This document shows, piece by piece, positions 1 to 64,000 of a stretch of DNA of 64,000 nt (positions are counted from its first letter, which is position 1; each line of letters opens with the position of its first letter). The notes under the pieces are model-generated. The model ran no database searches. It was not told the origin of the DNA and saw only the letters and a program-made list of their open reading frames with translations. The translations under genes were made by a program, and so were the position numbers. Where the stretch lies: positions 429-64,428 of IMG/VR virus record IMGVR_UViG_3300028138_000003. The stretch is one strand, 5' to 3'. Source of the stretch: a virus.

Positions 1-397
1 GGAGGCGTAAGCAGCGCTCGCCGACATCTCGACGTTGATCACGCGCTGGTCGCTGAACTCCTTCAGCAGCGTTCCGTCGTTGCCCCCGATCTCGACCACG
101 GTGCTTTCATTGTCGAGAGCCAATCGCGAGATCATGTCGCAGGCGTACTTCACCGCGTTTCTGACCGTGCCAGGAACACTGCCTGAGAAGAACGGATAGT
201 CCGAGCCGAACAGCTCATCGTGCGGCACGTCGTAGTCAAGCTGCAGCAGATTGCAGTGGCGGCACAGCACGAGCCGCAGCGGATACTCCCGACGACCTAT
301 GCTGATGGGGTTGTCCAGTAACGCGTTACTGGCTGGCTGCCTGCCTAGGTTCAGGACCTCGGTGAGCCCGCATGCATTGCAGGCCCGGCAGTGGATG
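1..397 (-). CDS. NDP-hexose C-methyltransferase (TylCIII-like), N-terminal portion; its 3' part runs off the window start
   Basis: GTG start at 397 overlaps the upstream stop (GTGA). The translation VKRIHCRACNACGLTEVLNLGRQPASNALLDNP...LCRHCNLL matches the putative zinc-binding domain of C-methyltransferases (Methyltransf_13-type; recalled pattern CxxC...LG.QP.SNA). It is followed by SAM motif I (VVEIGGNDGTLL). The frame remains open to base 1. Confidence 0.6.
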
Positions 398-401
398 CGT
401 T

Positions 402-701
402 TCACGTGGGCTCCCGGGGCTCTAGGCACATGGAAAGAGGCACGTCGAATCGCGCACGCGCCAGCTCTCTGTGAAGGATCGCGCGCGTCTCGCACTCGGC
501 GAACAGCATGCGTACGACCGCGGCTGCGGAGACCTCCGACACGTGCTTGACCACTTCCGCTTTGTTGTGCGTGAAGTCGACCTCGTCTATGTGCACGCGC
601 GTGAAGACCTGCCCCTTGGCGAAGGTCTCAAGCACGCGCAGCAGTTCCTTGTTGATGGCCTCAAGAGCGGAGATCTCGGATTTGCAGTATGGGCAGTTCA
701 T
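402..701 (-). CDS. hypothetical 99-aa protein (N-terminal CPYC motif)
   Basis: ATG at 701 overlaps the stop of the upstream methyltransferase (ATGA). The product begins MNCPYCKSEISALEAINKELL. Its stop at 402 is followed by the GTG start of the next gene. Confidence 0.45.
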   Translation of the reverse strand: MNCPYCKSEISALEAINKELLRVLETFAKGQVFTRVHIDEVDFTHNKAEVVKHVSEVSAAAVVRMLFAECETRAILHRELARARFDVPLSMCLEPREPT

Positions 702-1264
702 TTGAGCTTCTTGAATGCGAAGAAGAGGGAGTACTCGTCGTTCTGGTCGCAGACCTGATAGTCCACGAGATCCCAGTTCCACGCCGTCTTGGCCATAGCC
801 TCGACGACGCGATCGTAGTTGACGTTCCACAGCTGGCGCGGGTGCGCATCCGGCGCTGCGGGAATGCCGCGCTCGGGCTCGGCGCACTTGGGGTACTGCT
901 TCTCGTCGGGCAGGTAGAGCACGACGTGGGCGTTCGTCTTGATCACGCGCATCCAGTTGCGCAGCGCCTCGGGCACCTGCTTGTACGGGAAGTACTGCAG
1001 CAGGTAGGAGGAGTAGGCGTAGTCCCACTGACCGGCGGAGAACGCCGCTAGCTCCACGGCGTCGATCTGGACGTTCGGGGTGACTGGGAGGCCCATCTCG
1101 CCGTCCCGCCCATTATCTACGCCGCAGACGAACTCGGTTTCGAAGAGCCGCTGGGCTCCGCAGCCTATGTCTAGGCCTCGGCCGGCGGTATAGGGTACGG
1201 CACGCCAGCGCGTCTTGGCCGTCTCATTGACGTTTACGATCGGAAACGCTGGGTTGCGCGCCAT
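698..1264 (-). CDS. class I SAM-dependent methyltransferase (possible sugar O-/N-methyltransferase)
   Basis: Motif I is present (RGLDIGCGAQRLFETEF). The ATG at 1264 has an AGGAAG RBS 6 nt upstream. An alternative TTG start lies at 1291. Confidence 0.6.
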   Translation of the reverse strand: MARNPAFPIVNVNETAKTRWRAVPYTAGRGLDIGCGAQRLFETEFVCGVDNGRDGEMGLPVTPNVQIDAVELAAFSAGQWDYAYSSYLLQYFPYKQVPEALRNWMRVIKTNAHVVLYLPDEKQYPKCAEPERGIPAAPDAHPRQLWNVNYDRVVEAMAKTAWNWDLVDYQVCDQNDEYSLFFAFKKLK

Positions 1265-1300
1265 CAAAGCTTCCTGGTGCTCGAGGGGCAATCATCTTAG

Positions 1301-1331
1301 GGCAAAAGAAAAGGGGCCACAAGGGCCCCTT
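1301..1331 (-). terminator. rho-independent terminator downstream of the fibre-like gene (minus strand)
   Basis: Perfect 8-bp GC-rich stem AAGGGGCC / GGCCCCTT (1311-1318 and 1324-1331) with a 5-nt loop. On the minus strand it is followed by TTCTTTTGCC (1301-1310). Confidence 0.7.
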
Positions 1332-1362
1332 AAAAAGAAAGACAGTTTTTATTGGATTCGTG

Positions 1363-2028
1363 TTACCGGCTGAACGATCCGCCCGGGGTCCAAGTGTACT
1401 CGATTTCCACTGCGTACTGCGCCAGCGTATCGGTTCCACGCGAGACGACGAGAACGTCGTTCGGTCCTACGGTGAGACCACCGTTCGGGCCAGAGGGGAA
1501 CACGTAGTTGCCCTGCGTGTTGGTGCCGGCAGGAGCCGTCACGATCACGGTGCAGGTTCCGCCAACCAGCGGGATCACGGTGGGGTTGTAGGCCACCTGA
1601 GTTCCGAGGCCAACGAACTGCGTGCCGGTGGGTCCAACGTAGCTGCCGGTCAGGGTCCCGACGACGTTGGTGTAGATGCAGAACTGCACCTTGTTGATGC
1701 CGGTGCCGAGGTTCGTCCCGTTGCCGACGGTTACCGCAGTCGCGGTGGCAGTTCCGAAGACCTGCGCGTTGTACGACTGGAGGGTAAGACCGATGAAGTC
1801 AGCAGCCGTGGGGGCCACGAGCGGGATCACGGTGATCGAACGAACCTGCTTGCCCATGAGTCCGCCGCAGAGCGCGGCGTTCGGGCTTCCGCCGTTGTTC
1901 GTCGCGGAGCCGAGAGCTCCGAGAACGAATACGGCAACCTGCGGATCCGGATACTGCTCGTCGTATGCGAACGATCGTCCGCCGCCCGGGAGCAGAAGGG
2001 GTGAATTGACTGACGGTTGGTTAGCCAT
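1363..2028 (-). CDS. Gly/Thr-rich beta-structure (tail-fibre-like) protein, 221 aa
   Basis: The composition resembles fibre and adhesin proteins (GTATATAVTVGNGTNLGTG..., TVIPLVGGTCTVIVTAPAGTNTQGNY). It is a monocistronic unit with its own strong terminator and sits among the glycosylation genes. Confidence 0.5.
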   Translation of the reverse strand: MANQPSVNSPLLLPGGGRSFAYDEQYPDPQVAVFVLGALGSATNNGGSPNAALCGGLMGKQVRSITVIPLVAPTAADFIGLTLQSYNAQVFGTATATAVTVGNGTNLGTGINKVQFCIYTNVVGTLTGSYVGPTGTQFVGLGTQVAYNPTVIPLVGGTCTVIVTAPAGTNTQGNYVFPSGPNGGLTVGPNDVLVVSRGTDTLAQYAVEIEYTWTPGGSFSR

Positions 2029-2175
2029 TGAATGAGTCCTCTATGAGTTGTCGCCACCCGACATACGGAACCAATGCGGGTCCGCAGGGATGGCTGCAGA
2101 GGACTCGCCGACCCCCTGTATAGGCGTACAGGGGCGGCGGGGGAAGCTCGACCGGGTCAGGCTGTGATCAGGCTC

Positions 2176-2391
2176 TCACTTACCGGCGGGGCCGGGGACG
2201 CATCCCTCCGCCCCGTGGACGACCCCGTCATTCGTGGCCCAGTAGTTCGGCCACACGATCCAACCGTGGGGGCAAACGCTGTTCCGGCCGACCCGCTCCA
2301 TATAGCCGGGCTCGGGAGTGACGCAGTTGTTCGGTCGTATGCGCTGCGGGCCGAGATAAGAGGTCGGCTCAATCCTGATCTTCGCTTTCAT
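2176..2391 (-). CDS. hypothetical small Cys-containing protein, 71 aa
   Basis: GGAG RBS lies 8 nt before the ATG at 2391. An ATGA overlap joins it to the stop of the glycosyltransferase gene. Confidence 0.4.
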   Translation of the reverse strand: MKAKIRIEPTSYLGPQRIRPNNCVTPEPGYMERVGRNSVCPHGWIVWPNYWATNDGVVHGAEGCVPGPAGK

Positions 2392-3389
2392 CTGGTCAGC
2401 TCCTTGATTGCTTTGGCAGCCTCGATACACAGGGTCAGGGCGTCCTGCGCACGATAATTGAAGGCCTCCACGCCTCCCGGGAAGACCGAGAGGTTGTAGC
2501 CGCGCAGGCAGCAGTACATGGCGAACATGGACGTGGTCAGCAGCATCGTGTGGAGCCCGGGCGCCTCCACGGCGTCAGTGGCCTCTTCGATCATGGTGTT
2601 GAGCCACTCGATCTGGTTGAGGAAGTCCCGCTCCTTGCACTGGAGCGCTGCGGGGCTGAAGTGCTTGCGGCCGTATTCCGTCATGTTGGAACCAGGCACA
2701 GGCGCCCGCATCACGAGCAGTGGGCGCGGGTCGAACAGGATCGAGCCCTTGACCGCAGCGTGCGCCACGACCATGTGATCCCAGCCGGCGCACATGTGGC
2801 GCACTGGCACCTGCCGGCGGATCTCTTCGTTCCACAGGCCGAATAGCGGCGTGCAGTCGATGCCGCTGATGATCCACTGGGGCACGAAGGGCAGCGGCAT
2901 GTTGCCTGCGGATTGCAGGTAGTTGGCGTACTGCCCGACGAACTGGTCGTCCTCGTTAACCTGCGCCGTGTGCGTGTAGACGAGTGCCGGCTTGTTGCCG
3001 GCCTTGCGCTCGTTGTCCAAGCGGCTCACGAGGGTCGCAAGATGCTCGGAGTTGGGCCAGTAGTCGTGCCCGCCCAGCGTGATGCTGTAATCGACAGGCA
3101 GCGAGGAGATGTATTCCCAGCCAAACTTCATGGCGGGAATGCCAGCGAGGCCCTGCGGCATCGCAACGAACACCACCTTGCCGGGATTCGACTCCACGTA
3201 GTTGAGCGCGATCTGATCCGCTCCGTCGAGGCTGTGGTTATCGAAGATGTAGAGCGTGAAGTCTTTGTAGCTCTGGTTGAGCACGGACTCGATCGCCTTC
3301 GCAATGTGCTTGGCGTTGCCGTAGTTGTTGATCCAGACAGCTACCTCAGACACGAGTCTTCTCCCTTCCGCGACCGAAGTTACCGCCAA
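2388..3389 (-). CDS. family 2 glycosyltransferase (GT-A fold)
   Basis: The N-terminal GT2 signature is present (VWINNYGNAKHIAKAIESVLNQSYKDFTLYIFDNHSLDG, DxD-type). There is no C-terminal TM segment. An alternative GTG start at 3353 has a GGGAGA RBS. Confidence 0.75.
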   Translation of the reverse strand: MAVTSVAEGRRLVSEVAVWINNYGNAKHIAKAIESVLNQSYKDFTLYIFDNHSLDGADQIALNYVESNPGKVVFVAMPQGLAGIPAMKFGWEYISSLPVDYSITLGGHDYWPNSEHLATLVSRLDNERKAGNKPALVYTHTAQVNEDDQFVGQYANYLQSAGNMPLPFVPQWIISGIDCTPLFGLWNEEIRRQVPVRHMCAGWDHMVVAHAAVKGSILFDPRPLLVMRAPVPGSNMTEYGRKHFSPAALQCKERDFLNQIEWLNTMIEEATDAVEAPGLHTMLLTTSMFAMYCCLRGYNLSVFPGGVEAFNYRAQDALTLCIEAAKAIKELTR

Positions 3390-3615
3390 CCGACGGGTGC
3401 TGGGTGTAGATCCCTTGCTTCGATCTGTTCTCTTGCGTCCGCGCTCTGTTGACGAGCGTGCTCACCTTGGAGCGCCGTATGCGCTGAGCCAGATTGAGGC
3501 GCGGGCGCACCGGGTGCAGCAGTGGCAAGGAGCCGCCGCACTCCGTGCAGACTCGCTTCACGAACAGCGTGTCCTTGCCGCAGGGAGCGCAGGGCGCGTT
3601 AACCAGCTTGGCCAT
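3346..3615 (-). CDS. zinc-ribbon protein, 89 aa
   Basis: Two CxxC pairs are present (CAPCGKD...CTECGG). GAGGTG RBS lies 6 nt before the ATG at 3615. The 3' end overlaps the start of the GT2 gene. Confidence 0.4.
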   Translation of the reverse strand: MAKLVNAPCAPCGKDTLFVKRVCTECGGSLPLLHPVRPRLNLAQRIRRSKVSTLVNRARTQENRSKQGIYTQHPSVGGNFGRGREKTRV

Positions 3616-3681: not shown

Positions 3682-4014
3682 TCAGGGGCACTTGGTTAGG
3701 TTCCCACCCGGAGCGATATAGATTGCTGTCGGGCAGCCGGCGTCGTTCGCCTTCAGGGTGCTTTGGTCCCATGAGCTACTTACCAGTAAGAGCGTCGCGC
3801 TCTGCGCGCTCGGCGTTGATGACGACGAGGTCGTGCTCGGCTGCGCTGATAAGCTGTTCGACAGCGCTTTCAACGCTTCCGGCAGCTGGAGCTGCTCCCG
3901 ATGCGGGGGCGGCGGGACCTGATAGCACGGGGCAGCTACCGTGAGTGGCTTGGTAGTTGCGCAACCTGCGAGTAAGGTCATCAGCGTTGGTAGCAGCAGC
4001 TTTGAGCTGTTCAT
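3682..4014 (-). CDS. o-spanin (Rz1-like lipoprotein), embedded in and extending past Rz
   Basis: The +1-frame ORF starts MNSSKLLLPTLMTLLAGC (signal peptide with LAGC lipobox). A proline-rich stretch follows (PPPPHREQLQLP). Confidence 0.55.
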   Translation of the reverse strand: MNSSKLLLPTLMTLLAGCATTKPLTVAAPCYQVPPPPHREQLQLPEALKALSNSLSAQPSTTSSSSTPSAQSATLLLVSSSWDQSTLKANDAGCPTAIYIAPGGNLTKCP

Positions 4015-4249
4015 CCTGTTTCTCCTGAATTGTGGCGAGAGCGATCCCGTACTCTTTGTCGAGCCGGTCGATTGTCTCTTGGGCCTCGGCCTTGGTTTTC
4101 TCGCTGGCAGCTTGCACGGCAGCCACTTCATGCGCTGCGCCGATGCGGCGCTCGTGCACGGTGTAACAGCCGAAGGCTGTCAGCAGCGCGACGATCGCGC
4201 CGACGTACAGCCAGTCTTTCAACGGGATCAAATTCAACAGTGCTAACAT
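3776..4249 (-). CDS. i-spanin (Rz-like)
   Basis: The N-terminal TM segment is LALLNLIPLKDWLYVGAIVALLTAF. It is followed by a charged coiled-coil periplasmic domain. An o-spanin ORF is embedded in another frame. Confidence 0.7.
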   Translation of the reverse strand: MLALLNLIPLKDWLYVGAIVALLTAFGCYTVHERRIGAAHEVAAVQAASEKTKAEAQETIDRLDKEYGIALATIQEKQDEQLKAAATNADDLTRRLRNYQATHGSCPVLSGPAAPASGAAPAAGSVESAVEQLISAAEHDLVVINAERAERDALTGK

Positions 4250-4495: not shown

Positions 4496-5785
4496 TCACG
4501 GTCCAACCTGCTGCGTGGCGAAGCCCTGAATGCTGTTACCGCTCGCCGTATCGCCCGTGTCGGGCTCGGGCAGCTGCGCGGCAGCGTACGCGGAGAAGAG
4601 GATCCCCACGCTCGCCGTATCGCCCGCGCCGCCCGCCAGGCTATTGCCCGTGACGCTGACGTAGGGGCATCCCTCAAGGAGTATGCCGATTGCGCGCGTG
4701 GCGCCGTTCACGGTGTCCACGTAGGCTAGGTCGTTGTTGCTGATCGCGCCGTCGTGCACGTTATAGAGCGCGTAGATCCCGGCGTTCGCGCTCGCGAGGA
4801 TGCGATTGCCGTTGACGGTGAAGAACGCGGTGCCCAAGTCCAAGCCGATGGCCGGGGAGTTGGTGCTCGACATGGTGTTGCCGGCGAGAGTGAGATCGAC
4901 ACTGGTCGCAAACTCGCTCAGCCCCGCGCCGGTCGTGGTGTTGTTGGCGAACGTCGCGCCCTTTGAGTACTCGCTGTAAAGCGGATCGGCAGTGCCGTGC
5001 GTCGTGACACTGATGCGCTGCACGGTCGCATTCAGCGTGCTGAGAATCGCGACGCCCACTGCGCTGCCGGCGGCAGAGGGATCGACGACTATGCTCAAGT
5101 CCTGCACCGCAAGATCCTGCGTCACGAAGATCTTCTGAAAGCCCACGCCGCTCGTGATCGTGCCGCCGGTGCTTGGCGTATACGGGAATGGCGTGCTGAA
5201 GGCTTGCCGGAACGGCACGGTGACGTTGACTGTCGTGCCGCTGACGTTTGCAACCTGCACCCAGTCGACCGTGGTCGCGTACGAGGTGTGGAAGGTGCCG
5301 TCCTTAATGCCGGGGTCCCAGTTCGTTATCAGCAGCCAATCGCCGGCGCCAATTCCCGCCAGGTCGCTCGAGTTGGCGGCCTGGAACGAGGTGTCGCCCA
5401 CGTTGATGGCGCCAGCCACCTCAAGAGGGATAGTGGCCGAGAGCGCGCAGCGCGTCGTGATGACGCGATCATTCTGGCAGTGCTTGACAGTGCCCGGGGC
5501 GGGCGGCTCGTAGAACAGTACCGTGCTCGCACCGTGGCCCTGCAGCGTCGTGCCGCTATGGGACATCATCAGCGTGCGCGAGATGTGGTACGTGCGCGCG
5601 TCCAGCTGCACGACTCCGCCGGCATCCAGCAGCGCTTGCACGGCTGCGGTGTCGTCGACCACCGGAGGTGGCGGCGGCGCCTTGATATCGGGCGGCGGCA
5701 CGGTAACGTGCGGCGCCGGTGGCGTGACTCCCCCACCGCAAGCGGCGAGGGCGAGTGTTACTGCAATCGGGATTAACTTGTTCAT
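4496..5785 (-). CDS. exported lipoprotein with right-handed beta-helix (pectate-lyase-like) domain
   Basis: The signal is MNKLIPIAVTLALAACGG (lipobox). A Pro-rich linker follows. Repetitive beta-helix segments are present (NVHDGAISNNDLAYVDTVNGA..., GNSLAGGAGDT). ATGA coupling joins it to the upstream small gene. Confidence 0.6.
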   Translation of the reverse strand: MNKLIPIAVTLALAACGGGVTPPAPHVTVPPPDIKAPPPPPVVDDTAAVQALLDAGGVVQLDARTYHISRTLMMSHSGTTLQGHGASTVLFYEPPAPGTVKHCQNDRVITTRCALSATIPLEVAGAINVGDTSFQAANSSDLAGIGAGDWLLITNWDPGIKDGTFHTSYATTVDWVQVANVSGTTVNVTVPFRQAFSTPFPYTPSTGGTITSGVGFQKIFVTQDLAVQDLSIVVDPSAAGSAVGVAILSTLNATVQRISVTTHGTADPLYSEYSKGATFANNTTTGAGLSEFATSVDLTLAGNTMSSTNSPAIGLDLGTAFFTVNGNRILASANAGIYALYNVHDGAISNNDLAYVDTVNGATRAIGILLEGCPYVSVTGNSLAGGAGDTASVGILFSAYAAAQLPEPDTGDTASGNSIQGFATQQVGP

Positions 5786-5910
5786 TTCCACAACCTCATG
5801 ATGACGTTCGCGGCGACATCGACTGCCTTGTTGAGAGCGTAGATGAGAATGCCCGCCAATACGACAGCGATCCCCAGCGCGATGCTGACGATGATCAGTG
5901 CGGTTTTCAT
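5785..5910 (-). CDS. small single-TM protein, 41 aa (holin/antiholin-like)
   Basis: The product is MKTALIIVSIALGIAVVLAGILIYALNKAV.... GGAGAA RBS is present. ATGA overlaps occur at both ends. Confidence 0.4.
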
Positions 5911-6235: not shown

Positions 6236-6406
6236 CGTGGCATCCCTCGCAGGCAGATGGCGTGCTCCATGCCTACGAGGCCTTGGCCCATCCGCTCGTT
6301 GACCCAGCGGGCCTGCGCCGTGCACTCCGCTTGCGTAGCCTGCGGGATTGCCTGCGATGTGTTCCAGTCCATGCCGAAAATGATCAGATACCAGATCGTG
6401 TTCATG
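6232..6406 (-). CDS. hypothetical 57-aa protein
   Basis: The product is [34 protein letters not shown].... Its start overlaps the DNA methyltransferase stop (ATGA), and its stop overlaps the next ATG. Confidence 0.35.
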
Positions 6407-7370
6407 CTGCGATCTCCATTACGCTTTCGATGAAGGCTTGCGCGACCTGAGGAACGATTGCATTGCCGTAGCCCCGCAGGAGTCCCACTCGACCGGGTAC
6501 CCCATGAGCCAGCGGGAATGTGCCGGGTTCAATTGGCCGCCACTTCCCATCTCGGCAGCCAACCAAGCAGTGCGTCCAAGTAGCGCGTTGATCGGCGCGG
6601 AGCCGTCGCTGGCTCCATCCTTGTGGTCGCGCGTCGTCGGGGTTGGCCAACTCGCCAGCTGGGCTTGCAACGATAGACTCGTAAGACTCACTCCGCAGGC
6701 GCCGTTCAAGTTCCGCTTGCGATTCAGGAACTGCTCCGGCGTGCCGCCCGCTTCCTGTGCGGCTGGGGTGGCCCACGTGGCCAGCTTCGCTGCCCCGCCC
6801 AGCTTCAGACACGGACGGTTGTGATCCCCGTTGCCGTAGCTGTAGTCGCTCCCCTTGCTGTCGTTCACCACCGGCGAGGGCCACCCAATAGAGCCGCTGG
6901 CGGATGTGCGGGGCGCCGACGCTCGCAGCGCACAGATCCGCAGCCCCAACGGCGTAACCCTGTGCTTCCATGTCAGTTGATACAGAGTCGAGCCAGTTGA
7001 GGCCAAGCGGGCTCGCAACTTGCTCTCCAAAGACGACTGGAGGCTTGCACTCGCGAATGAGCGCCTCCCATACGTGCCAAAGGTCTCGGGCATCATTCTC
7101 CCGCCGGCGGCTGTTGGCAACGCTGAAGGGCTGGCACGGACAAGATCCGGTCCAGACTGGTCTGTCGTCGGGCCACCCCGCCATCCGGAGAGCAAGAGGC
7201 CACCCTCCGATGCCAGCGAAGAAATGCGCTTGAGTGTATCCGCTGAGCTCTCCTGGTTTGACCTCTTCGATCGATCGCTCATCGACGTCTCCTGCCGGCA
7301 GATGGCCGGCCAATATCAGTTCGCGCAGCCACGCTGCGGCCTTGGGGTCGAATTCGTTGTAGTAGATCAT
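6402..7370 (-). CDS. DNA (cytosine-5)-methyltransferase, orphan (no cognate restriction gene seen)
   Basis: C5-methyltransferase motifs are present: [47 protein letters not shown] low-complexity target-recognition region lies between them. Confidence 0.8.
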
Positions 7371-9909: not shown

Positions 9910-10005
9910 CTACTCCAGTTTGGTGATGATCCAATTCATGACGGGAAAGCCTACGGCTATCGATAGGGCGGCGAGGCCCAAGGCTTGGAACAGTGCGACT
10001 AGCAT
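9910..10005 (-). CDS. small hydrophobic peptide, 31 aa
   Basis: The product is MLVALFQALGLAALSIAVGFPVMNWIITKLE. Its ATG overlaps the stop of the upstream gene. Confidence 0.25.
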   Translation of the reverse strand: MLVALFQALGLAALSIAVGFPVMNWIITKLE

Positions 10006-10826
10006 GCTGGCCTCGCAAAGTAGGGGCGCACGCCCCGTGAGTTTATGTGCGTCATGACAGCGAACCCGCCATGACCGTTGATGACTATTGAGCCGCGCCG
10101 CCCATCGGCGCCACCGCACGCCATGCACGTGGCGCAGGTAAGCTTCTTTCCCGCCTCTGCGGACGCTGGGCAAGTTATCTCTTTATCTTGCTTGCCGGGA
10201 TCGCAGGGCATGGCTACGCGGAATGTACGCCAGCCCGCCGCTTGTGCCTCACGCGCGTCGATCAGGCTATCGGCTGAAGCCATGCACAGGGTGCGCAGCT
10301 GCGGCGCGTGGCGCCATTGGTGCGTATAGCCAGTGTGCCCGCTGGCATAGAGGGTAAGTTCCCGCCATACAAAGTCAGGTACTGCCGCCGGATCCCCGTA
10401 AGTTCCCAAGCGCACAAGCTTGCCGCGCCCAAGGTGGCTTATGGCTTGCCAGCCTTGCCCGCGCTCCGCGTAGCGTCCCCGTTTCCACGCGCGCCAGACT
10501 CCCAGCGGGCCTTGGCCGACGTTGACGTAGCACGTGCGCGCCTTGTGGGGACCGTCCGCATACGAGCTCGCCTGGCCAGGCTCGAGTGGTGTCTGGACAG
10601 TGCCACGGTGCGGACATTGCCCGCATATGCTGACGTCGGCGCCAGTGCGCAAGGCTGCGATGGGATCAACGTCGGCGCGCAGGATATAGGTTTGCACCAT
10701 GGCGCCCGTTTTGCGGTTGCTACTGCTAGCCGCTAAGCCGGTCGCTATTACCACGATAGGCGCGCCATCGAGTAGCGATGCGCCTTGCCATAGAACTGCG
10801 CCGTTACTTTTTGCCATTGGCGTCAT
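9999..10826 (-). CDS. hypothetical protein, 275 aa (early region)
   Basis: This is a long ORF on the coding strand of the early operon. CGQCPHRG and CATCMACGG Cys clusters are present. Confidence 0.5.
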   Translation of the reverse strand: MTPMAKSNGAVLWQGASLLDGAPIVVIATGLAASSSNRKTGAMVQTYILRADVDPIAALRTGADVSICGQCPHRGTVQTPLEPGQASSYADGPHKARTCYVNVGQGPLGVWRAWKRGRYAERGQGWQAISHLGRGKLVRLGTYGDPAAVPDFVWRELTLYASGHTGYTHQWRHAPQLRTLCMASADSLIDAREAQAAGWRTFRVAMPCDPGKQDKEITCPASAEAGKKLTCATCMACGGADGRRGSIVINGHGGFAVMTHINSRGVRPYFARPAC

Positions 10827-26659: not shown

Positions 26660-27616
26660 ATGGCTGGTCAAGTATGGTCGACTAACTCGCTCGGCGGATT
26701 CATGTTCTCCGTGAATCTGTCACGCAAACTGCGTACGGCGCTGCAGCCCATGGTGCGGTTCCGTCAGTTCTGCGACGCGAAAGAGGCCTTCGGCCTCGGT
26801 ATTGGAGACACGTTCCACTGGAACATATATAGCGACGTGGCAACCGCGGGCGGCGCGCTGGTGGAAAACCAGCTGATGCCCGAAACCAACTTCACGATCA
26901 CCCAGGCTTCGGCCGTGATCACGGAGTACGGCAACAGCGTCCCGTTCACCAAGAAGCTCGACGATCTGTCAGAGCAGCCGGTGACCGAAATCATCCATCG
27001 CGTGCTGAAGAACGACGCGCGTAAGGTCCTCGACCTCGCCGCGTACAACCAGTTCGTACAGACCCCCATCCGGGTAACCGGCAACGGGTCGACCACGGCT
27101 GGCGGCACGGGCATCACTGTCGTGACGAACGGCACCGTGACTGCGACGGCGTCCAGCTTCCTGAGTTCGGCTCAGGTGAAGTTGATCGCTGACCGCATGG
27201 CCGAGGACAACGTCCCGGCGTTCGACGGTGTCAACTACATCGCGATCTTCCGCCCGAGCGCGATCCGCGGCCTCAAGAACAACCTTGAGGCGATCAATCA
27301 GTACACGCCTGAGGGCTGGCACGTCATCATGAACGGCGAGAAGGGCCGTTATGAGGGCATCCGGTTCGTCGAGCAGACCAACGTCCCTGTCGGCACCAAT
27401 GCCGGTGGATCGACGCTGGCCAATACTGACCGCGGGTTCTTCTTCGGTTCAGACACAGTGGCCGAGGTCTTCGCGATTCCTGAGGAAATCCGCGGTAAGA
27501 TCCCGACCGACTACGGCCGCAGCCGTGGTATCGCTTGGTACGCGGAACTGGCATTCGGTATCGCGCACACGGAAGTTCCGGGTGCACGTATCTACTGCTG
27601 GGACAGCGCGGCCTAA
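26660..27616 (+). CDS. major capsid protein
   Basis: 318 aa. Strong RBS. Its position follows the scaffold gene and a terminator lies downstream. Confidence 0.7.
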   Translation: MAGQVWSTNSLGGFMFSVNLSRKLRTALQPMVRFRQFCDAKEAFGLGIGDTFHWNIYSDVATAGGALVENQLMPETNFTITQASAVITEYGNSVPFTKKLDDLSEQPVTEIIHRVLKNDARKVLDLAAYNQFVQTPIRVTGNGSTTAGGTGITVVTNGTVTATASSFLSSAQVKLIADRMAEDNVPAFDGVNYIAIFRPSAIRGLKNNLEAINQYTPEGWHVIMNGEKGRYEGIRFVEQTNVPVGTNAGGSTLANTDRGFFFGSDTVAEVFAIPEEIRGKIPTDYGRSRGIAWYAELAFGIAHTEVPGARIYCWDSAA

Positions 27617-38407: not shown

Positions 38408-41400
38408 ATGGCTGCTGCGGAAGACGCTCCGGCCGAACAACAACCTGCACGCCCAGCATACTGGGATGCCCCGATGGGCGAAGGCGCTCCCGCGCCGCAG
38501 CACGATGACGCCGCCTCCATGGGCCGGCAGTCTGTCGCGGGTCCCGACGCCGAGCAGGAAGCGCCCCGGCCCGCCTACTGGGACGCCCCGCTAGCCGCGG
38601 CGCCCGAGCCAGAAGCCAAGCCGACCGAGGCCCCCAAGCCCGCTGAGAGCACTTTCGGTACTGACGTTCTGACGGGCATCGGTGCGCGCGGCGCGCAGAT
38701 GTATCACGGCGCCAAGGAAGCCATGGCGAACCACCAATTCTCTTCAGCGCGCGAAGAATTCTACCGAACCATGGTCCTTGGCGACGCCGTCCGCGACGCG
38801 GGCAAGGCAGGCATCGCGCTTATCGACGACCCGGTGGTGCAGGAGATCTCCAAGCACGTAGGCATGCGCCCTGACCAGTTCGTCCGCGGATGGTACAACT
38901 ACGTCAACCTGTCCGAGGAAGAGAAGCAGAAGCGCCTCGGCGAGCTCCAGCAGCAGATGGTCGAAGCCACCGGCAACATCGCCGAGGCGTCGCACGGTCG
39001 CGCGCTGGCGGGGCAGGTGTCACGCGAGGCCATGCCGCGAGAACACCAGTTTGCCTACAAGGCCCTGACGATGGCCCCCGAGATACTGGGCGGGCTGGGC
39101 ATTTCCATGATCCCCGGTGGCCAAGCCCCGGCAGCTGCGATGTTCATGTCCGACTTCGGACTCACCAGCTACGCCCAAGCGCGCGACAGCGGCGCATCCG
39201 ACGACCAAGCCAAGGTCTACGGCGTGCTCTCGGGACTCGCGGCCACCGTGCCTCAGGTACCCGTCATGACGGCCCTGCAGAAGACCCCCGCGGCGCAGGC
39301 GCTTATGCAGACTGCGATCGGCAAGGTACTGGCCCAGAACGCCGCCGGCCGCGTAGCGGGCGCCGTAGCGAGCCAGGCGACCAACGAGTCGCTGGCGCTT
39401 GCCGTCCAGAACACCCTCCAGATCGCCATCGACAAGGGAGTGCTCGACCAGAACACCACCCTCGGCGAGGCGCTGCGCACGATCGGGGAAGGCGCGCTCA
39501 TGGGCGCGACCTTCGGCTCCTTCAGCGGCGCCGCACACAGCGGCGTCAACCGGCTGGTCAATGGTCCTGCCGCTACGCAGGGCCCGGGCGCCAGCGACGC
39601 AATGACCAACCGCATCCTCGAGGCGCAGCACACGGCCATGGACGCCGCGCAGACTGACGCCGAGCAGGCGGCCTTGGCGGCAGGCGGCGACGCCCTCGAC
39701 GGCAAGGTAGCCGCCATTCAGGCGAACGCCCATGTCAGTGCCGAGCACGACGCCGCGACAGTGCACCAGACCCGGGTCGAGGCAGCCCGCAAGTCGGCCG
39801 AGGACGAGATCGCCAACGCGCAGGCGGCCGAAGACGAGCTGAAGAAGGATCAGGACTTCGGCGCCGCCGAGCGGCAGGCCGGCAAGGTCGGCAATGCCCC
39901 GAGCGCCGATGAGGCGTTCGCCCAGCGTGAGCAGGAGGGAGCGCTCGCCGCCAAGCGCGCGGAGGCCCAGAAGGACCGGGACTTCGTTCCCGCCAAGAAC
40001 CAGGCGGCCGATCAGGATGTCGCGCAGGCAGAGGTCGCCGAGGAGAAGGGCGGGGCCTCACCGGCCAAGCCGACGCTGGCCGAGGCGCTGCCGACCGAGC
40101 AGGTGAACGCCCTGCAGGCACTTAGGGACCGGCTGGCGGCCCAAAGATCGGCCAACGAACCGGCCAAAGAGACTACCGCCGCGGAGCGCCTCAAGGCGCA
40201 GAACCCGGAGGACGACTTCCAGCAGCTGGGTCCTGAGGTGCCTAAAGCCACCAAGGGCGAGCCCAAGTTCATCCTCGACCCGCTCGACGAGCTAGCCCCG
40301 GGCAAGGCCAAAGCCCCGGAGAAGGCCCCAGAGCCGACCGAGGATGAGGAGGAGCCAACGGGCGGCCCGCCCCCCGTAACGGCGCAGACGCTGGCTGAGC
40401 GCCGGCAGCAGGCCTTGGACGCAGCTATGGCCGCCAAGGTCCGCGGTCCCGTGGCCAAGGAAGCTCCGATAGCCGCCCACCGGCGCGACCTCACCGCACT
40501 GGAGCGGGATCTGCCCGCGCCGGCGGAGGGCACCACGCGCCTGTGGCGCGGCGGCAAGAAAGGGGAAGGCCCGGGTGAGCAGACCCGCTTTACTGACGAT
40601 CCGGCCGGCATCGCGATGCCCTTCGAGAAGGGATACGGCGGTAGGCTGTTCCACGTAGACGTCCCCACCGACCAGTTGGAAGGGTACCGCAACGGGCCGA
40701 ACGACCCGGGTGCTTTCAACCTACCCAAAGAACTGGCTGCAAAGGCGCAGGACTCTCGCAATCTAGCCAAGGACAAAGTAGCGCCGAAGGGCGCGCTGGC
40801 CGAGCGCCGCGCCGCCGCCCGACCGCCGCTGCAGCAGGGGGTCGACCCGGCCGAGCGGCTCCTCGAGGAGCAGGTCAAGAAGGACGCCGACGCCGCCGCT
40901 GCCAACCCGAAGGGCAAGCGACCCCCGCTGGTGCAGGGCCGAGACCTTGCGGGGCCGCTGATTGAGGCGAAAGCTCGCAGAGACGCCGAAGCCGCGGCGG
41001 CGCCTACGACCACCGAAGAGGCCCCTGCCCCAGCTACCGCCGAGGCACCGATCGCCGCTCCTGAAGCCGCTGAAAAAGAGTCGGCTCGCATAGAAGCCGA
41101 ACGCACGCGCCCAACCGATGCCCTGTCGGCGGCCCCGGCCAAACCGAACCGGCTGGCCGCGATCCGCGCTGCGCAGGAAAAGCGCAACCAGCGCATCCGT
41201 ACCCCGGCCGAGCAGAGCATCATCGACGACCTGCGCGCGGGGCGGGCGAAGAAGGGCGAAGAGCCGCCACGCTTCGCCGACGTGCGGCAAGCCAATGTGT
41301 GGAAGCGCATGAACGACGAGCTTGCCGAGCACCGAGCGGCAATGGACAAGGCGCGCGACGCCGGAGACGTGCGCGGGTATAACGCCGCAGCAGACAAGTA

Positions 41401-54777: not shown

Positions 54778-55750
54778 TTACAGCCAGTGGGGGTTTTCTA
54801 GTGTCCATGTGACAGTCTTGAATAAGGCCTGCTGGAACGTCGCTGGCGGTCGCCAGCCCATGCGCGCAAGTTTGCTACCGTCGAGCGCGTAACGCAAGTC
54901 GTGCCCGGGCCGGTTGCCGTCCCCGGTCAGCTCGTACCGCAAGCCCTCGCTCATGATGAAAGCGATGCTCTTGGCCAGCTCGGCGTTGTCCACCTCGCGC
55001 TCGCCGACGATATTGTACTTGTCGCCGGGCACGCCATTCTGCAGCACGAACAGCACCGCGTCGGCCACAGCCTTGGCGTGAATGTAGAACCGCGAGCCGG
55101 CCTTCGTGCGCTCCGGGTTGGAGTGGATCTGCACCGTTTCGCCGTCGCGGATCTTGCGGATGGTGCTCGGGATGAACTTCTCGGGGTGCTGCCGCTCGCC
55201 CATGACATTCATGGTGTGCGTGATCAGCGCGGGCACGCCGTAGGTATTGTGGAACGCGATCGCGAGTTCCTCGCCTCCAGCCTTGCTAGCACTGTAGGGG
55301 TTAGTTGACTTGTATCGATCCCATTCTTTGTAAGCAACGCCCGGAGGAGCGCTGCCGAAGACCTCATCAGTAGAGAAGTAGAGAAGCCGCCCGCAGCCAA
55401 CTTGTCGAGCGTAGTTAAGTAGGTTGCAAGTGCCAACGACGTTCTCTTCGACAAACGAGAGCGGGTCCGCGATGCTGCGGTCGACGTGCGTCGCCGCCGC
55501 GAGGTGGATGATGTGGTCAAAGGGGCCTCCTAGCTGGCTGACGAGCTGCCCGTTGAGCGGTGCGCGCAGGTCGTGATAGAAGAAGCGGACGCGCGGGTTC
55601 TTTACCGCGCCAACCTCGGCCAGGCGATTCAGATTGCCGGAGATGTCGAGGCGGTCGATCAGCGTCAGGTCCCAGTCGGTGTAGTTGAGCAGCTCCTCGA
55701 CGAGGTGGTGCCCGATGAAGCCAGCGCCGCCGGTGATAAGGGCTTTCATG
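54778..55750 (-). CDS. NAD-dependent NDP-sugar 4,6-dehydratase (RmlB-like)
   Basis: The internal ATG at 55750 gives a 324-aa product. Motifs MKALITGGAGFIGHH, STDEVFG and YSASK are present (Rossmann GxxGxxG, catalytic YxxxK). Confidence 0.75.
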
Positions 55751-56147
55751 CTGTGTTCCTCTCCCGCTTCTCGATGAGCAGCTGCAGCTCCGCGCGCAGG
55801 CGCCAGATGGCCTTGGCCAAGTGGTAGGTTCCGTCGGTGTCCATGATCTGGCCCGTGCCGTGATCGAAGATATGCCGGAACGCTTTGTTCAGGTGGTCCG
55901 TGCTCTTCTCGCGGGCCCAGTGCATCTTCGTGCCGGGGTTGTGCTGCTTGTTGCCTTCCCATGCGACGCGCACCTCCTCGCGGAACGACAGCGGGAAGTA
56001 CCCGAACATGTAGTCCCACATGGGGAGCCGCTCTCGCTCCGTGGGCGGCTTGGCTGTCGCCGGCTGCAGCACTGGCGGCTCGGTGCGGATCACGTTGGGC
56101 ACCTCGTCGTAAGCGCAGTCCAAGCACTTGTGCTCGCTCACTGCTTG
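55746..56147 (-). CDS. hypothetical protein, 133 aa
   Basis: GTG start overlaps the upstream stop (GTGA). The product begins VSEHKCLDCAYDE. Confidence 0.35.
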   Translation of the reverse strand, partial: QAVSEHKCLDCAYDEVPNVIRTEPPVLQPATAKPPTERERLPMWDYMFGYFPLSFREEVRVAWEGNKQHNPGTKMHWAREKSTDHLNKAFRHIFDHGTGQIMDTDGTYHLAKAIWRLRAELQLLIEKRERNTA

Positions 56148-56416
56148 CGCTCCATGGTGTCCTCGCCATCGGAGTAGAAGATCTTTGGCGTCTTGGTCTC
56201 GCGCGTCAGAGCGGTCACCATGGCCTCCGCGAACACTCGAGCGATCGTCTCGGGGGTGTAGATCTTGCCGGTGCGCAGCAGCCCGCCGATGTACGCCCCC
56301 TCGGCCACGATGCAGGCGAACAGCAGTCGCGAGTCGTGGACGAGCGCTAGTGGGCCTAAGGCGGCGCCAACGGCATCGCTGCAAGCCAGCAGCGCGTCTT
56401 GCTCAATATTGCTCAC
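56138..56416 (-). CDS. hypothetical protein, 92 aa
   Basis: ORF-track call. ATGA overlap with the phosphoesterase gene stop. Confidence 0.35.
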   Translation of the reverse strand: MSNIEQDALLACSDAVGAALGPLALVHDSRLLFACIVAEGAYIGGLLRTGKIYTPETIARVFAEAMVTALTRETKTPKIFYSDGEDTMERKQ

Positions 56417-62193: not shown

Positions 62194-62407
62194 AGTGCAT
62201 CCTCGGTAGCAATTGTCCAGTTCCAAGGCACCGCGGGCAGCCGCTGCCCTTGCGCACCGTGGTCTTCTCGGCGATGCCCTCCTCGTCGCGCGTGCGCCGT
62301 GTGAGCGGCGCGCCCTCTGAGTCGAGCATGGAGTCGCATGTGGCCGCAGTGTATCCGATGCCTTGGCACTCGGGACACTCGGTGTGGGAGGCTTTCGTGG
62401 TTCTCAT
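62192..62407 (-). CDS. Cys-rich protein, 71 aa
   Basis: CPECQG and CPRCLG motifs (zinc-ribbon-like). ATGA overlap with the GT9 gene stop. Confidence 0.4.
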   Translation of the reverse strand: MRTTKASHTECPECQGIGYTAATCDSMLDSEGAPLTRRTRDEEGIAEKTTVRKGSGCPRCLGTGQLLPRMH

Positions 62408-63504
62408 GCCGGCGGACTCCATACAGGGGCCTTCCCCGTGTTCATACATTCTTGCAGGGCCGACCACACCCACTCGGGCTTGGTCTCAGTGGTGCACTGC
62501 GCCACCTGCGTCTGCTTGTTCTGCAGGCAGCCCTCGAAACCAGGCAGCAGCTTGTGGCATGCTGGGACTTCGTTAGCGCCGCGCCCGGGGCAGTGCGTGT
62601 TCGGCGCCCAGATGCTCGTGGTGTTGACCCAGTCACGGGTCAGGTTCTCGATCGTGCTGTGGGTCAGCAGGCAGATCTTCGGCATGGGGTAGAACGCAGA
62701 GGCCGACATCACGCCGGTCTCGGGCCCTACGACCACGTCGGCCGACTCCATCATGAGCATCACCTGCCGCATGGTGTACTTGCCCGCAGTCAGCCACATG
62801 CGTGGCCGGCCATCGAACCCCTGTTCTAACGGCGTGCAGGTCGCGTCGCCCACAGTCAGGACGCCCCACGACGGGTAGTGCCGCAGCACGTGCTCCCACA
62901 CCTTGTTGGCGTGCGGGTAGACCTTGTGCCCTCGGCTGCTGCCGGCGAGGTTCCACAGGATGTACTTCTCGATGCCGGCTTTCTTCATCTTGGCCAGCTC
63001 GCGCTGCCGCCACTCCTGCTCCTCGTCTGTCGAGTAGAACTTGAAGCTCGGCACGTATGCGCATTCCGCCAAGCGGTGCTGGTGCTCGAGGTAGTTGACA
63101 TTCATGAGCGCGTGGCGCGCCTTAGCCGGCCACACGAAGCGGATGTTGCCCGGCATGGCCAGCAGGTTGGCCTCCACCGACTCGGTGAGGTTCACCCACT
63201 TGTCGAATTTCTTGCCGCCCGGGGCGCCGTAGTTCTCAAACCAAGGCCAGAAGAGGCCGAGGTGCGCCATGGGGACTTGGTTGATCGTCTGCACGACGAG
63301 CCGGTCGATCGACGGATCGTGGATCACGATCTCGTGGCTCGGGTGCTGCGACACGAGGGTCACGTGGTACCCGTCTTTCTTTAGCTGCGTGATGATGCTC
63401 ATCGCCTGCGCGACGTCGCCGAAGGCACCGTAGCGCACGACGCACGCTGTGGGCAGCCCCTGCGGGTTTTTCTTTTCTTTCCAGCTGAATCGTTGCGTAC
63501 TCAT
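62404..63504 (-). CDS. GT-B glycosyltransferase, family 9-like (heptosyltransferase-type)
   Basis: The C-terminal region MESADVVVGPETGVMSASAFYPMPKICLLTHST resembles the GT9 donor-binding motif (D-SG..HLA.A.G.P...LFG). TGATG-coupled to the C-methyltransferase gene. Confidence 0.6.
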   Translation of the reverse strand: MSTQRFSWKEKKNPQGLPTACVVRYGAFGDVAQAMSIITQLKKDGYHVTLVSQHPSHEIVIHDPSIDRLVVQTINQVPMAHLGLFWPWFENYGAPGGKKFDKWVNLTESVEANLLAMPGNIRFVWPAKARHALMNVNYLEHQHRLAECAYVPSFKFYSTDEEQEWRQRELAKMKKAGIEKYILWNLAGSSRGHKVYPHANKVWEHVLRHYPSWGVLTVGDATCTPLEQGFDGRPRMWLTAGKYTMRQVMLMMESADVVVGPETGVMSASAFYPMPKICLLTHSTIENLTRDWVNTTSIWAPNTHCPGRGANEVPACHKLLPGFEGCLQNKQTQVAQCTTETKPEWVWSALQECMNTGKAPVWSPPA

Positions 63505-64000
63505 CAGAACACCTTCAGCTCAGGGATTGCGGTTACGAACTGTCCGCCCCAGCCGCGGATGCAGTGGAGCTTGTCGACGATGTTGTCCTTCCAGTTCCAC
63601 GGCAGGATCACCACATATGCCGGCTGGCGCACGAGTAACTCCGCTTCCGAGATGATCGGAATGTTGCTGCCCGGGAGGAACTTGCCGATCTTGGCCGGCG
63701 TGCTATCGCCCACCGCGAGGATCTCCTCCGCGCTGACGTGCAGCCAGTTGAGGAACGTGTTGCCCTTGGCGGCGGCGCCGTAGGCGTACACGGGCGCGTG
63801 CTGCGAGAGGAACGCTTCGAAGTCCCCGCGGATGCTCCATGCGCGCTCGCGGAACTTCCAGTATGTCTCAAGCTTGTCGAGCCCGGCTTCGCGCTCGCGC
63901 GCGAGGAAGTCCGCGATGCGAATGCTCGGGATCATCGCCCCGGTGTGGGCCACCATGATCTGCAGCGAGCCGCCATGGATCGGCAGCTCCTCCACGCCGT
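63504..64000 (-). CDS. NDP-hexose C-methyltransferase, C-terminal portion (partial; its 5' part lies off the window end)
   Basis: HGGSLQI follows the end of the methyltransferase domain. The Methyltransf_14-type C-terminal domain is present (YAYGAAAKGNTFLNW...IPIISEAELLVRQPAYVVILPWNWKDNI). The frame is open to the window edge. Confidence 0.65.
   Translation of the reverse strand, partial: GVEELPIHGGSLQIMVAHTGAMIPSIRIADFLAREREAGLDKLETYWKFRERAWSIRGDFEAFLSQHAPVYAYGAAAKGNTFLNWLHVSAEEILAVGDSTPAKIGKFLPGSNIPIISEAELLVRQPAYVVILPWNWKDNIVDKLHCIRGWGGQFVTAIPELKVF

Follow-up and report, generated by a model that had tools for sequence, protein, structure and literature searches.

A sugar-gene cassette of uncultured tailed phages and its Thr-rich jelly-roll protein, a candidate glycan acceptor

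The sugar cassette and its enzymes

The DNA analysed here is a stretch of 64,000 nucleotides (nt) from the IMG/VR virus record IMGVR_UViG_3300028138_000003 (positions 429 to 64,428 of the record), referred to as the window. It represents a tailed-phage genome with a GC content of about 62%, for which a nucleotide search against 50,697 phage genomes gave no match. The plus strand encodes the terminase, the portal, the major capsid protein and a giant protein of DarB type. A block of sugar genes lies in a long arm on the minus strand, around p221, a Gly/Thr-rich protein of 221 amino acids (aa). All genes of this block were found on the minus strand, where a preliminary description of the window had placed them. 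The region forms the left half of a conserved cassette of phage glycosylation genes, with protein as the proposed target; its gene identities, folds, synteny, fusions and co-occurrence were observed here. Its main features are the following (ORF, open reading frame; SAM, S-adenosylmethionine; SD, Shine-Dalgarno; NDP, nucleoside diphosphate; pI, isoelectric point).

1..405, minus strand: N-terminal part of the C-methyltransferase, 135 codons; the GTG start at 405 overlaps the stop codon of the upstream ORF (GTGA)
698..1264, minus strand: MT188, a 188-aa class I SAM methyltransferase (Methyltransf_11/23) with the motif LDIGCG
1301..1331, minus strand: intrinsic terminator, 32 nt past the p221 stop codon; 8-bp stem (6 GC pairs) at 1331..1311, 5-nt loop, TTTTCTTTT
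1363..2028, minus strand: p221, 221 aa, Gly/Thr-rich, acidic (pI 4.7); candidate glycan acceptor or virion accessory protein
2029..2176, minus strand: 5' leader of p221, 148 nt; long-range SD/anti-SD helix enclosing an inner hairpin
2388..3353, minus strand: GT2 glycosyltransferase, 321 aa, GTG start; PF00535, E 8.2e-12, 45.8 bits against a cut-off of 23.3
54778..55749, minus strand: RmlB-like NDP-hexose 4,6-dehydratase, 323 aa; TIGR01181, E 7.5e-76; PF01370 and PF16363
61484..61852, minus strand: cupin, 122 aa; PF07883, E 3.3e-7; kept in every related cassette
62404..63504, minus strand: GT9-like GT-B glycosyltransferase, 366 aa, directly downstream of the C-methyltransferase
63504..64000, minus strand: C-terminal part of the C-methyltransferase, the same gene across the window ends

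The C-methyltransferase gene is split over the window ends, with its N-terminus at 405..1 and its C-terminus at 64000..63504. An intact gene of 399 aa is present in another, 64,439-nt assembly of the same phage, and the window is therefore a circularly permuted genome. About 298 nt, all within this gene, are absent between positions 64000 and 1, assuming an assembler overlap of 141 nt. The N-terminal part matches PF08421, a zinc-binding domain, at E 2.6e-15 and 56.8 bits (cut-off 31.3). The four cysteines of this domain are legible in the sequence as the pairs CRAC and CRHC, and the SAM domain begins after it. The full-length identical gene (L001) encodes PF08421, PF13489 and PF08484 in one polypeptide. 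With this TylC3-type domain set (PF08421, SAM domain, PF08484) the product is, as predicted from sequence, an NDP-sugar C-methyltransferase. The predicted C-methylation of a 4-keto NDP-sugar finds its support in the RmlB-like 4,6-dehydratase encoded in the same arm, a candidate source of the 4-keto-6-deoxy sugar. Transcription beyond the C-methyltransferase would reach, in this order, the genes of the GT9-like enzyme, the cupin (a candidate sugar epimerase or isomerase), a D5-type primase-helicase, a 522-aa protein, a MazZ-like protein and the RmlB-like enzyme.

MT188 scored 22.4 bits against Methyltransf_11 (cut-off 21.2) and matched Methyltransf_23 at E 1.5e-5; it is probably a sugar O-methyltransferase. 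The best PDB sequence match of GT2 is SpsA (E 0.0014), and GT2 has no membrane segment, the maximal 19-residue Kyte-Doolittle mean being 1.26. The preliminary description had recognised a C-methyltransferase N-terminus with its zinc-binding domain, a second SAM methyltransferase and a soluble GT2, and all three assignments are borne out by these matches.

The GT9-like gene encodes a putative heptosyltransferase, the assignment to GT9 being weak by sequence and clear by the modelled structure. PF01075 was matched at E 2.6e-4 with 20.8 bits, below the cut-off of 22, and TIGR02193 at E 4.9e-6 with 26 bits against a cut-off of 185. Several of its homologs do carry PF01075, and the best PDB match of its profile is the GT9 protein 3tov (E 0.015). 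The best Foldseek match of its AlphaFold2 model (predicted local distance difference test, pLDDT, 89) is WaaF (1psw, E 1.6e-10, template modelling (TM) scores 0.60/0.66), together with 3tov, WaaC (2h1h) and TibC. Four C-terminal cysteines (C305, C316, C326 and C337) are invariant. Neither GT2 nor the GT9-like enzyme has membrane segments, which fits a cytoplasmic acceptor.

p221, its expression signals and its relatives

Gly and Thr account for 14.9% and 12.2% of the residues of p221, and charged residues for just 6.3%. In the AlphaFold model, 25 N-terminal residues predicted to be disordered precede a compact single jelly-roll beta-sandwich. Phage turret and cement proteins are among the nearest folds, and the fold also resembles discoidin and neuropilin b1 domains and PNGase F; in a Foldseek search against BFVD all TM scores were 0.38 or below. 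No Pfam, PHROG or NCBIfam match was obtained for p221. All of its 47 homologs come from metagenomes, and no relatives were found in GTDB genomes. One homolog (P0006, 72% identity) has been deposited in a metagenome-assembled genome of the Steroidobacteraceae. This possibly hints at the host, and a Gram-negative host would have ADP-heptose. The hosts are probably Gram-negative soil bacteria.

In a generic terminator scan of 6.5 kb, 5 terminator-like sites turned up where 4.2 are expected, so that the site downstream of p221 is, on its own, within chance. We take it as real because an equivalent hairpin and T-run lies 3' of the p221 homolog in all 16 related loci inspected. This conserved terminator suggests stoichiometric expression of p221. 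It also divides the block into two units. The earlier claim of a strong terminator belonging to the p221 gene is thereby confirmed, whereas that of one block on one transcript is an oversimplification.

The leader of p221 folds with a minimum free energy (MFE) of -63.6 kcal/mol (z -3.4; none of 200 shuffles was equally stable). In its outer helix the SD region AGAGGACUC pairs with an upstream anti-SD GAGUCCUCU, and the enclosed inner hairpin is formed by GCCAUCC/GGGUGGC. The same two-helix layout was found with compensatory changes in 10 of 12 related loci. Variants of the outer helix are GAGUCCUCU/AGAGGACUC, GGGUCCUCG/CGAGGACCC and CCUCUCA/UGAGAGG, and the inner helix alternates between GCCAUCC/GGGUGGC and GCCUUCC/GGGAGGC (GCCWUCC/GGGWGGC). 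The leaders were compared as independent MFE folds, with loops that vary in length and no MAFFT/RNAalifold consensus from the 11 leaders. In the shuffle control 1–30% of the shuffles matched per locus, which is moderate support, and no Rfam family matches the leader. Sequestration of the p221 SD by a conserved leader RNA is thus offered as a lead. Together, the terminator and the structured leader suggest a higher output of p221 than of the neighbouring enzymes, under a control of its own. The leader was seen upstream of the p221 homolog in L019, L020, L023, L016, L017, L024, L011, L026 and L027. The leaders of the window and of L020 are near-identical, though the two p221 proteins share just 68% identity.

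About 20 related metagenomic loci were compared, and gene order was judged in those extending far enough. The order in relatives of the window type, whose p221 homologs are 41–88% identical, is GT2, at most one small ORF, p221, terminator, MT188, C-methyltransferase (in most loci), GT9-like enzyme, cupin and D5 primase. In about 16 related loci p221 invariably stands between GT2 and the methyltransferase. GT2 homologs lie directly upstream of p221 in 13 related loci, and MT188 homologs, with 41–68% identity, occur in every related locus. In three lineages (L013, L015 and L027), and in many of 1594 GT9-like homologs, MT188 is fused N-terminally to the GT9-like enzyme. By the Rosetta-stone argument, these fusions indicate a common product for both enzymes. 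Where the RmlB and C-methyltransferase genes are missing, the lineages have instead a PfkB kinase and a nucleotidyltransferase, which match the two parts of a split HldE (rfaE_dom_I, E 6e-61; rfaE_dom_II, E 7e-28). This points to ADP-heptose as the donor, which the GT9-like enzyme probably uses.

One lineage has tandem p221 paralogs in place of the single gene (L013:9386-9991 and 10001-10654; L015:1296-1901 and 1911-2564). They are 201 and 217 aa long and 37–44% identical to the p221 of the window. Tandem paralogy is frequent among structural proteins. In a further locus (L010, ENA contig_53055, 74 kb) the cassette, from the p221 homolog on, borders on bacterial genes (OEP, FtsX, ankyrin, peptidase M16), with frameshifts in several of the cassette genes. 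This long-read assembly may be a decaying prophage or a chimera.

A wider Thr-rich family and its link to the capsid gene

A p221 profile searched against 1.84 billion representative proteins retrieved only 28 proteins, including relatives of 127–183 aa, with E-values from 1.7e-25 for intermediates of 176–183 aa to about 1e-4. The strands at the two ends (S-x-A-Y-D and G-D...K-G-T-D-A-T...P-G) are common to p221 and the short relatives, as is a Thr-rich loop in the middle, in many cases SGTTTTT. Conversely, profiles of the short family match p221 at 1.8e-10 and 6.5e-14, with no other match in the window. At least 216 proteins of 104–256 aa belong to this family. Its median Thr content is 15.9% against a background of 5.4%, a run of at least three Thr occurs in 28 of 45 members, and its hallmark is the presence of Thr/Gly-rich variable loops.

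In the four contexts that were checked individually, the short-family gene directly follows the major capsid gene. It is found 1–6 genes upstream of the MT188::GT9 fusion, usually with GT2 between them. The capsid gene of the window belongs to the same group:

26660..27616, plus strand: major capsid protein; phrog_1357, E 4e-23; 51–53% identical (BLASTP) to the capsid proteins encoded directly before short p221 relatives

Co-occurrence was assessed in stretches of +/-10 kb. Among 80 IMG/VR loci chosen solely by the GT9-like gene, a family member is present in all 47 that include the capsid gene, and in 40 of these 47 it starts 10–93 nt after the capsid stop codon. It is also present in 33 of the 34 loci with at least 6 kb of upstream sequence, the exception being L047. 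A second set of 80 loci was chosen by the capsid gene, and contained no family member without a GT9-like gene where the sequence suffices. The cultured Vibrio phage 431E45.1 and Escherichia phage Pondi, whose capsid proteins are 49–51% identical, have no GT9 gene and no family member near the capsid gene. When the methyltransferase-GT9 fusion or a short family member served as tblastn query against the 50,697 phage genomes, no cultured phage was found. The family depends on the enzyme, and not the enzyme on the family.

p221 itself is encoded 25 kb from the capsid gene on the opposite strand, with a fold that is compatible with a capsid accessory protein. In phages of the window type the family member has been enlarged by an insertion and placed with the enzymes, not with the capsid gene. 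This displacement is the strongest argument that p221 belongs functionally to the enzymes, and across the two genome layouts no other non-enzyme remains linked to GT2, the methyltransferase and the GT9-like enzyme.

These results change the picture of p221 as it was described before. The label 'fibre-like', an interpretation, fails for a compact jelly roll without any match to a tail-fibre family (Pfam, PHROG). A role in receptor binding is likewise not supported, the short relatives being encoded 10–93 nt after the major capsid gene and not among tail genes. What remains of the former proposal of a glycosylation substrate or glycan-decorated receptor-binding protein is its first half, now the leading hypothesis. 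p221 is the best candidate acceptor because it is the sole non-enzyme kept with GT2, the methyltransferase and the GT9-like enzyme, because it is Thr-rich, and because its terminator suggests stoichiometric expression.

Possible roles of p221 and the cassette

In the reading that we prefer, with a probability of about 0.5, p221 is an accessory protein abundant in the virion, probably associated with the capsid, and serves as dedicated acceptor for O-glycosylation by the phage's own enzymes. p221 would be made in large amounts from its own expression unit, in which a structured leader covers the ribosome-binding site and a terminator is reserved for this gene. The two soluble transferases, the GT9-like heptosyltransferase and GT2, would then O-glycosylate its Thr/Ser-rich loops in the cytoplasm. 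MT188, working with the GT9-like enzyme, would methylate the sugar. A branched 6-deoxy sugar could be supplied from host dTDP-glucose by the RmlB-like enzyme, the C-methyltransferase and the cupin. The glycosylated p221 would finally be built into the virion, most likely on the capsid surface.

Several points weigh against this proposal. In the window the cassette has lysis and replication genes of the leftward arm as its neighbours, and no head genes. The match of the GT9-like model fails to separate the protein-acting TibC from WaaC and WaaF, which act on lipopolysaccharide (LPS), and GT9 and GT2 enzymes classically use lipid-linked acceptors. The negative controls, phages 431E45.1 and Pondi, are two genomes only. 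Furthermore, in L179, L181, L188 and L198 more distant GT9-like genes (36–39% identity) adjoin the capsid gene and no family member could be detected, so that the enzyme does not strictly need a p221-type protein. Finally, four elements of the proposal are inferred: the acceptor role of p221, its presence in virions, the kind of glycan and the timing.

More distant phages with a GT9-like gene after the capsid gene but no p221-family member were seen to encode a different small Gly/Thr/Asp-rich protein between these two genes (L179:8054-8332, L181:11230-11439, L188:12704-13000, L189:2000-2326 and L198:6333-6605). These proteins share the motif RGTGTG...TYGA.L...ATN and may be an alternative acceptor.

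The enzymes might instead glycosylate another virion protein, for example the major capsid protein, with p221 as a lectin-like cement or adaptor that binds the glycan, or as a chaperone of the transferases. The resemblance of the p221 fold to carbohydrate-binding beta-sandwiches (discoidin, neuropilin b1, PNGase F) would suit such a role, and the pattern of dependence, with the family only where GT9 is present and GT9 sometimes alone, fits a binder equally well. In mycobacteriophages, moreover, the modified proteins are the capsid and tail-tube subunits themselves, according to the summary in PMC11600133 (citing Freeman et al. 2023). We nevertheless hold a glycan-binding or chaperone role to be unlikely: in phages of the window type p221 has moved off with the cassette while the capsid gene has stayed, the hallmark of the family is its Thr/Gly-rich variable loops and not a conserved aromatic or charged pocket, and the charge content of p221 is very low. 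Remodelling of the host envelope during infection or lysogeny, by heptosylation of the LPS core or by a change of O-antigen or capsule against superinfection, would make p221 an unrelated abundant protein. The GT9-like enzyme is indeed closest in sequence and structure to the LPS heptosyltransferases WaaF and WaaC, its homologs are labelled 'ADP-heptose:LPS heptosyltransferase' by JGI, and GT2 weakly matches GtrB-like, EpsE and TuaG proteins. The cassette beside bacterial genes in L010 could be that of a prophage, but that assembly is long-read, has many frameshifts and may be chimeric. An integrase/repressor module was looked for in the window and none was found, and a flippase, a polymerase and a membrane transferase are all missing. 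The methyltransferase-GT9 gene of most relatives lies inside the head cluster, between capsid and head-closure genes, which is the position of a late virion operon and not of a moron. The strict linkage to p221 would also be left unexplained, and we regard envelope remodelling as quite improbable.

The sugars could also be destined for phage DNA, as in base hypermodification of the 5-hydroxymethylcytosine (5hmC)-glycan type, again with p221 unrelated. LPS-related phage transferases and NDP-heptose genes put hexose, N-acetylhexosamine or heptose on 5hmC, and the clusters concerned likewise combine transferases derived from LPS or teichoic-acid synthesis, sometimes with their own NDP-heptose genes, with nearby replication genes and C5-methyltransferases (bioRxiv 10.1101/2023.12.21.572611). 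In the window a C5-cytosine DNA methyltransferase (7370..6402, minus strand; PF00145, E 9e-15) lies 3 kb upstream of the cassette. Interspersed with the cassette genes are replication genes, a MazZ-like dNTP pyrophosphohydrolase and, in L013, a dNMP kinase. The C5-methyltransferase, however, is not conserved with the cassette, being absent from all related loci covering the same neighbourhood, and neither a 5mYOX (TET/JBP) nor a ThyS-like hydroxymethylase was found among the scanned leftward-arm ORFs of at least about 120 aa or the precomputed Pfam calls. The transferase families differ as well, those described for DNA being JGT/TarP-like GT-A or T4-betaGT-like GT-B enzymes and not GT9, and C- or O-methylated sugars and a dedicated Thr-rich protein are foreign to the described DNA pathways. 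DNA modification was rejected as the leading explanation for want of a 5mYOX/ThyS partner among the ORFs scanned and of a conserved C5-methyltransferase, and we consider it very unlikely. Transferase genes among replication genes need not imply DNA modification.

To our knowledge, phage-encoded virion glycosylation has so far been shown essentially in mycobacteriophages and giant algal viruses. Chlorovirus PBCV-1 offers a precedent for a cytoplasmic transferase and a sugar methyltransferase in one polypeptide (e.g. A064R), with methylated sugars on a jelly-roll capsid protein. It differs in being a eukaryotic giant virus with N-linked glycans on a double jelly-roll major capsid protein, made by unrelated enzyme families. 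For mycobacteriophages of clusters O and F, PMC11600133 (citing Freeman et al. 2023) summarises that glycosyltransferases encoded beside an O-methyltransferase gene modify capsid and tail-tube proteins. Similarly, the transferase genes lie within a structural block in the capsid-adjacent relatives studied here. Unlike in that summary, where capsid and tail-tube subunits are the acceptors, a separate small beta-sandwich family travels with the enzymes. The gene set also differs from the one summarised there in its GT9-like::methyltransferase fusion, C-methyltransferase and HldE genes, and the hosts are probably Gram-negative soil bacteria.

TibC/AAH are soluble cytoplasmic GT-B enzymes that O-heptosylate a beta-rich protein with ADP-heptose and have a C-terminal Cys4 metal finger contacting the substrate (PMC4358343). 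The GT9-like model matches the TibC structure with a TM score of 0.53. It opens with a Rossmann-type beta-alpha-beta unit at residue 19 and has no N-terminal beta-barrel domain. No TibC chain was retrieved at E<=10 with the GT9-like sequence or its profile. The cysteines are spaced C-x10-C-x9-C-x10-C, as against C-x2-C-x15-C-x11-C in TibC (Cys339/342/358/370), and the acceptor would be a putative jelly roll here and is a beta-helix for TibC/AAH. Membership of the TibC/AAH group was rejected on account of the missing barrel, the lack of sequence similarity and the different Cys spacing. A positional analogue of the short relatives is gp10 of phage SU10 (PMC9509320), a small beta-rich protein whose gene comes immediately behind the capsid gene and has an annotated terminator after it. 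It was rejected as a family member, being Ig-like and without a match to the family profiles, and the SU10 capsid protein is unrelated. In published cryo-EM work gp10 was unseen on capsids (PMC9509320).

A cassette with its own acceptor-like protein family appears to be previously undescribed. As a tentative extension of the proposed role of p221 as acceptor, which we rate at slightly less than even odds, the phages would possess an undescribed system in which a dedicated family of Thr-rich jelly-roll virion proteins is O-heptosylated and methylated in the cytoplasm by a GT9-like enzyme to which a methyltransferase is coupled or fused. The acceptor gene of one lineage would have left the head operon together with the enzymes and gained a riboregulated leader and a terminator. 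It would be the first dedicated glycosylation pair of acceptor and enzymes in tailed phages outside the actinobacteriophages. A widespread heptosyltransferase-methyltransferase with its own small acceptor would extend virion glycosylation to other phages, with probably Gram-negative hosts. The counts are 1594 homologs of the GT9-like enzyme, 47 homologs of p221 and a short family with at least 216 members, and every one of these comes from an uncultured phage. If true, the proposal provides a concrete, testable enzyme-substrate pair, hints at how capsids could be shielded or made adhesive, and could give a soluble cytoplasmic O-glycosylation tag system for glyco-engineering.

Three small ORFs are interspersed with the genes of the block:

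402..701, minus strand: 99-aa ORF, N-terminal CxxC; translationally coupled on both sides; absent from the preliminary description
2176..2391, minus strand: 71-aa ORF, ATGA overlap with the GT2 stop codon
3346..3615, minus strand: 89-aa Cys-rich ORF, basic (pI 11.4), CxxC...CxxC; overlaps the GT2 start by 8 nt; boundary of the left arm

Stop and start codons overlap (ATGA, GTGA) at three junctions of the block. None of the three ORFs has a match in PHROGs, NCBIfam or Pfam. They have no counterparts in the related loci either, and were therefore dropped as cassette components.

A spanin-like pair lies just upstream of the sugar genes (3776-4249 and 3682-4014, both minus strand). The first member has 157 aa and an N-terminal membrane segment; the second is an overlapping out-of-frame ORF with the lipobox LLAGC that extends 94 nt beyond the stop codon of the first gene. 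Homologs of the 157-aa protein are also encoded upstream of GT2 in L016 and L020, and the unit ending at the p221 terminator may therefore be late. The middle part of the C5-cytosine methyltransferase gene is overlapped by a 287-aa ORF in another frame; that frame was chosen in the public gene call, which leaves the methyltransferase unannotated.

The DarB-like protein of 2405 aa (38408-45625, plus strand; phrog_10089, E 5.5e-126) closes the structural arm. The MazZ-like dNTP pyrophosphohydrolase (55746-56141, minus strand; weak PF18909 match) adjoins the sugar dehydratase. The 522-aa protein (56413-57981, minus strand) always follows the D5 primase-helicase in relatives, with 40–65% identity, and gave no family match. 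It begins with a zinc-ribbon-like CxxC...C and shows, by eye, the metallophosphoesterase-like motifs GDTH, SNHND, GHHG and GHSH. Upstream of the spanin-like pair, a predicted lipoprotein of 431 aa (4496-5791, minus strand) combines a signal peptide with an LAAC lipobox, a Pro-rich linker and a right-handed beta-helix/NosD-like domain, an unusual content for a non-structural arm.

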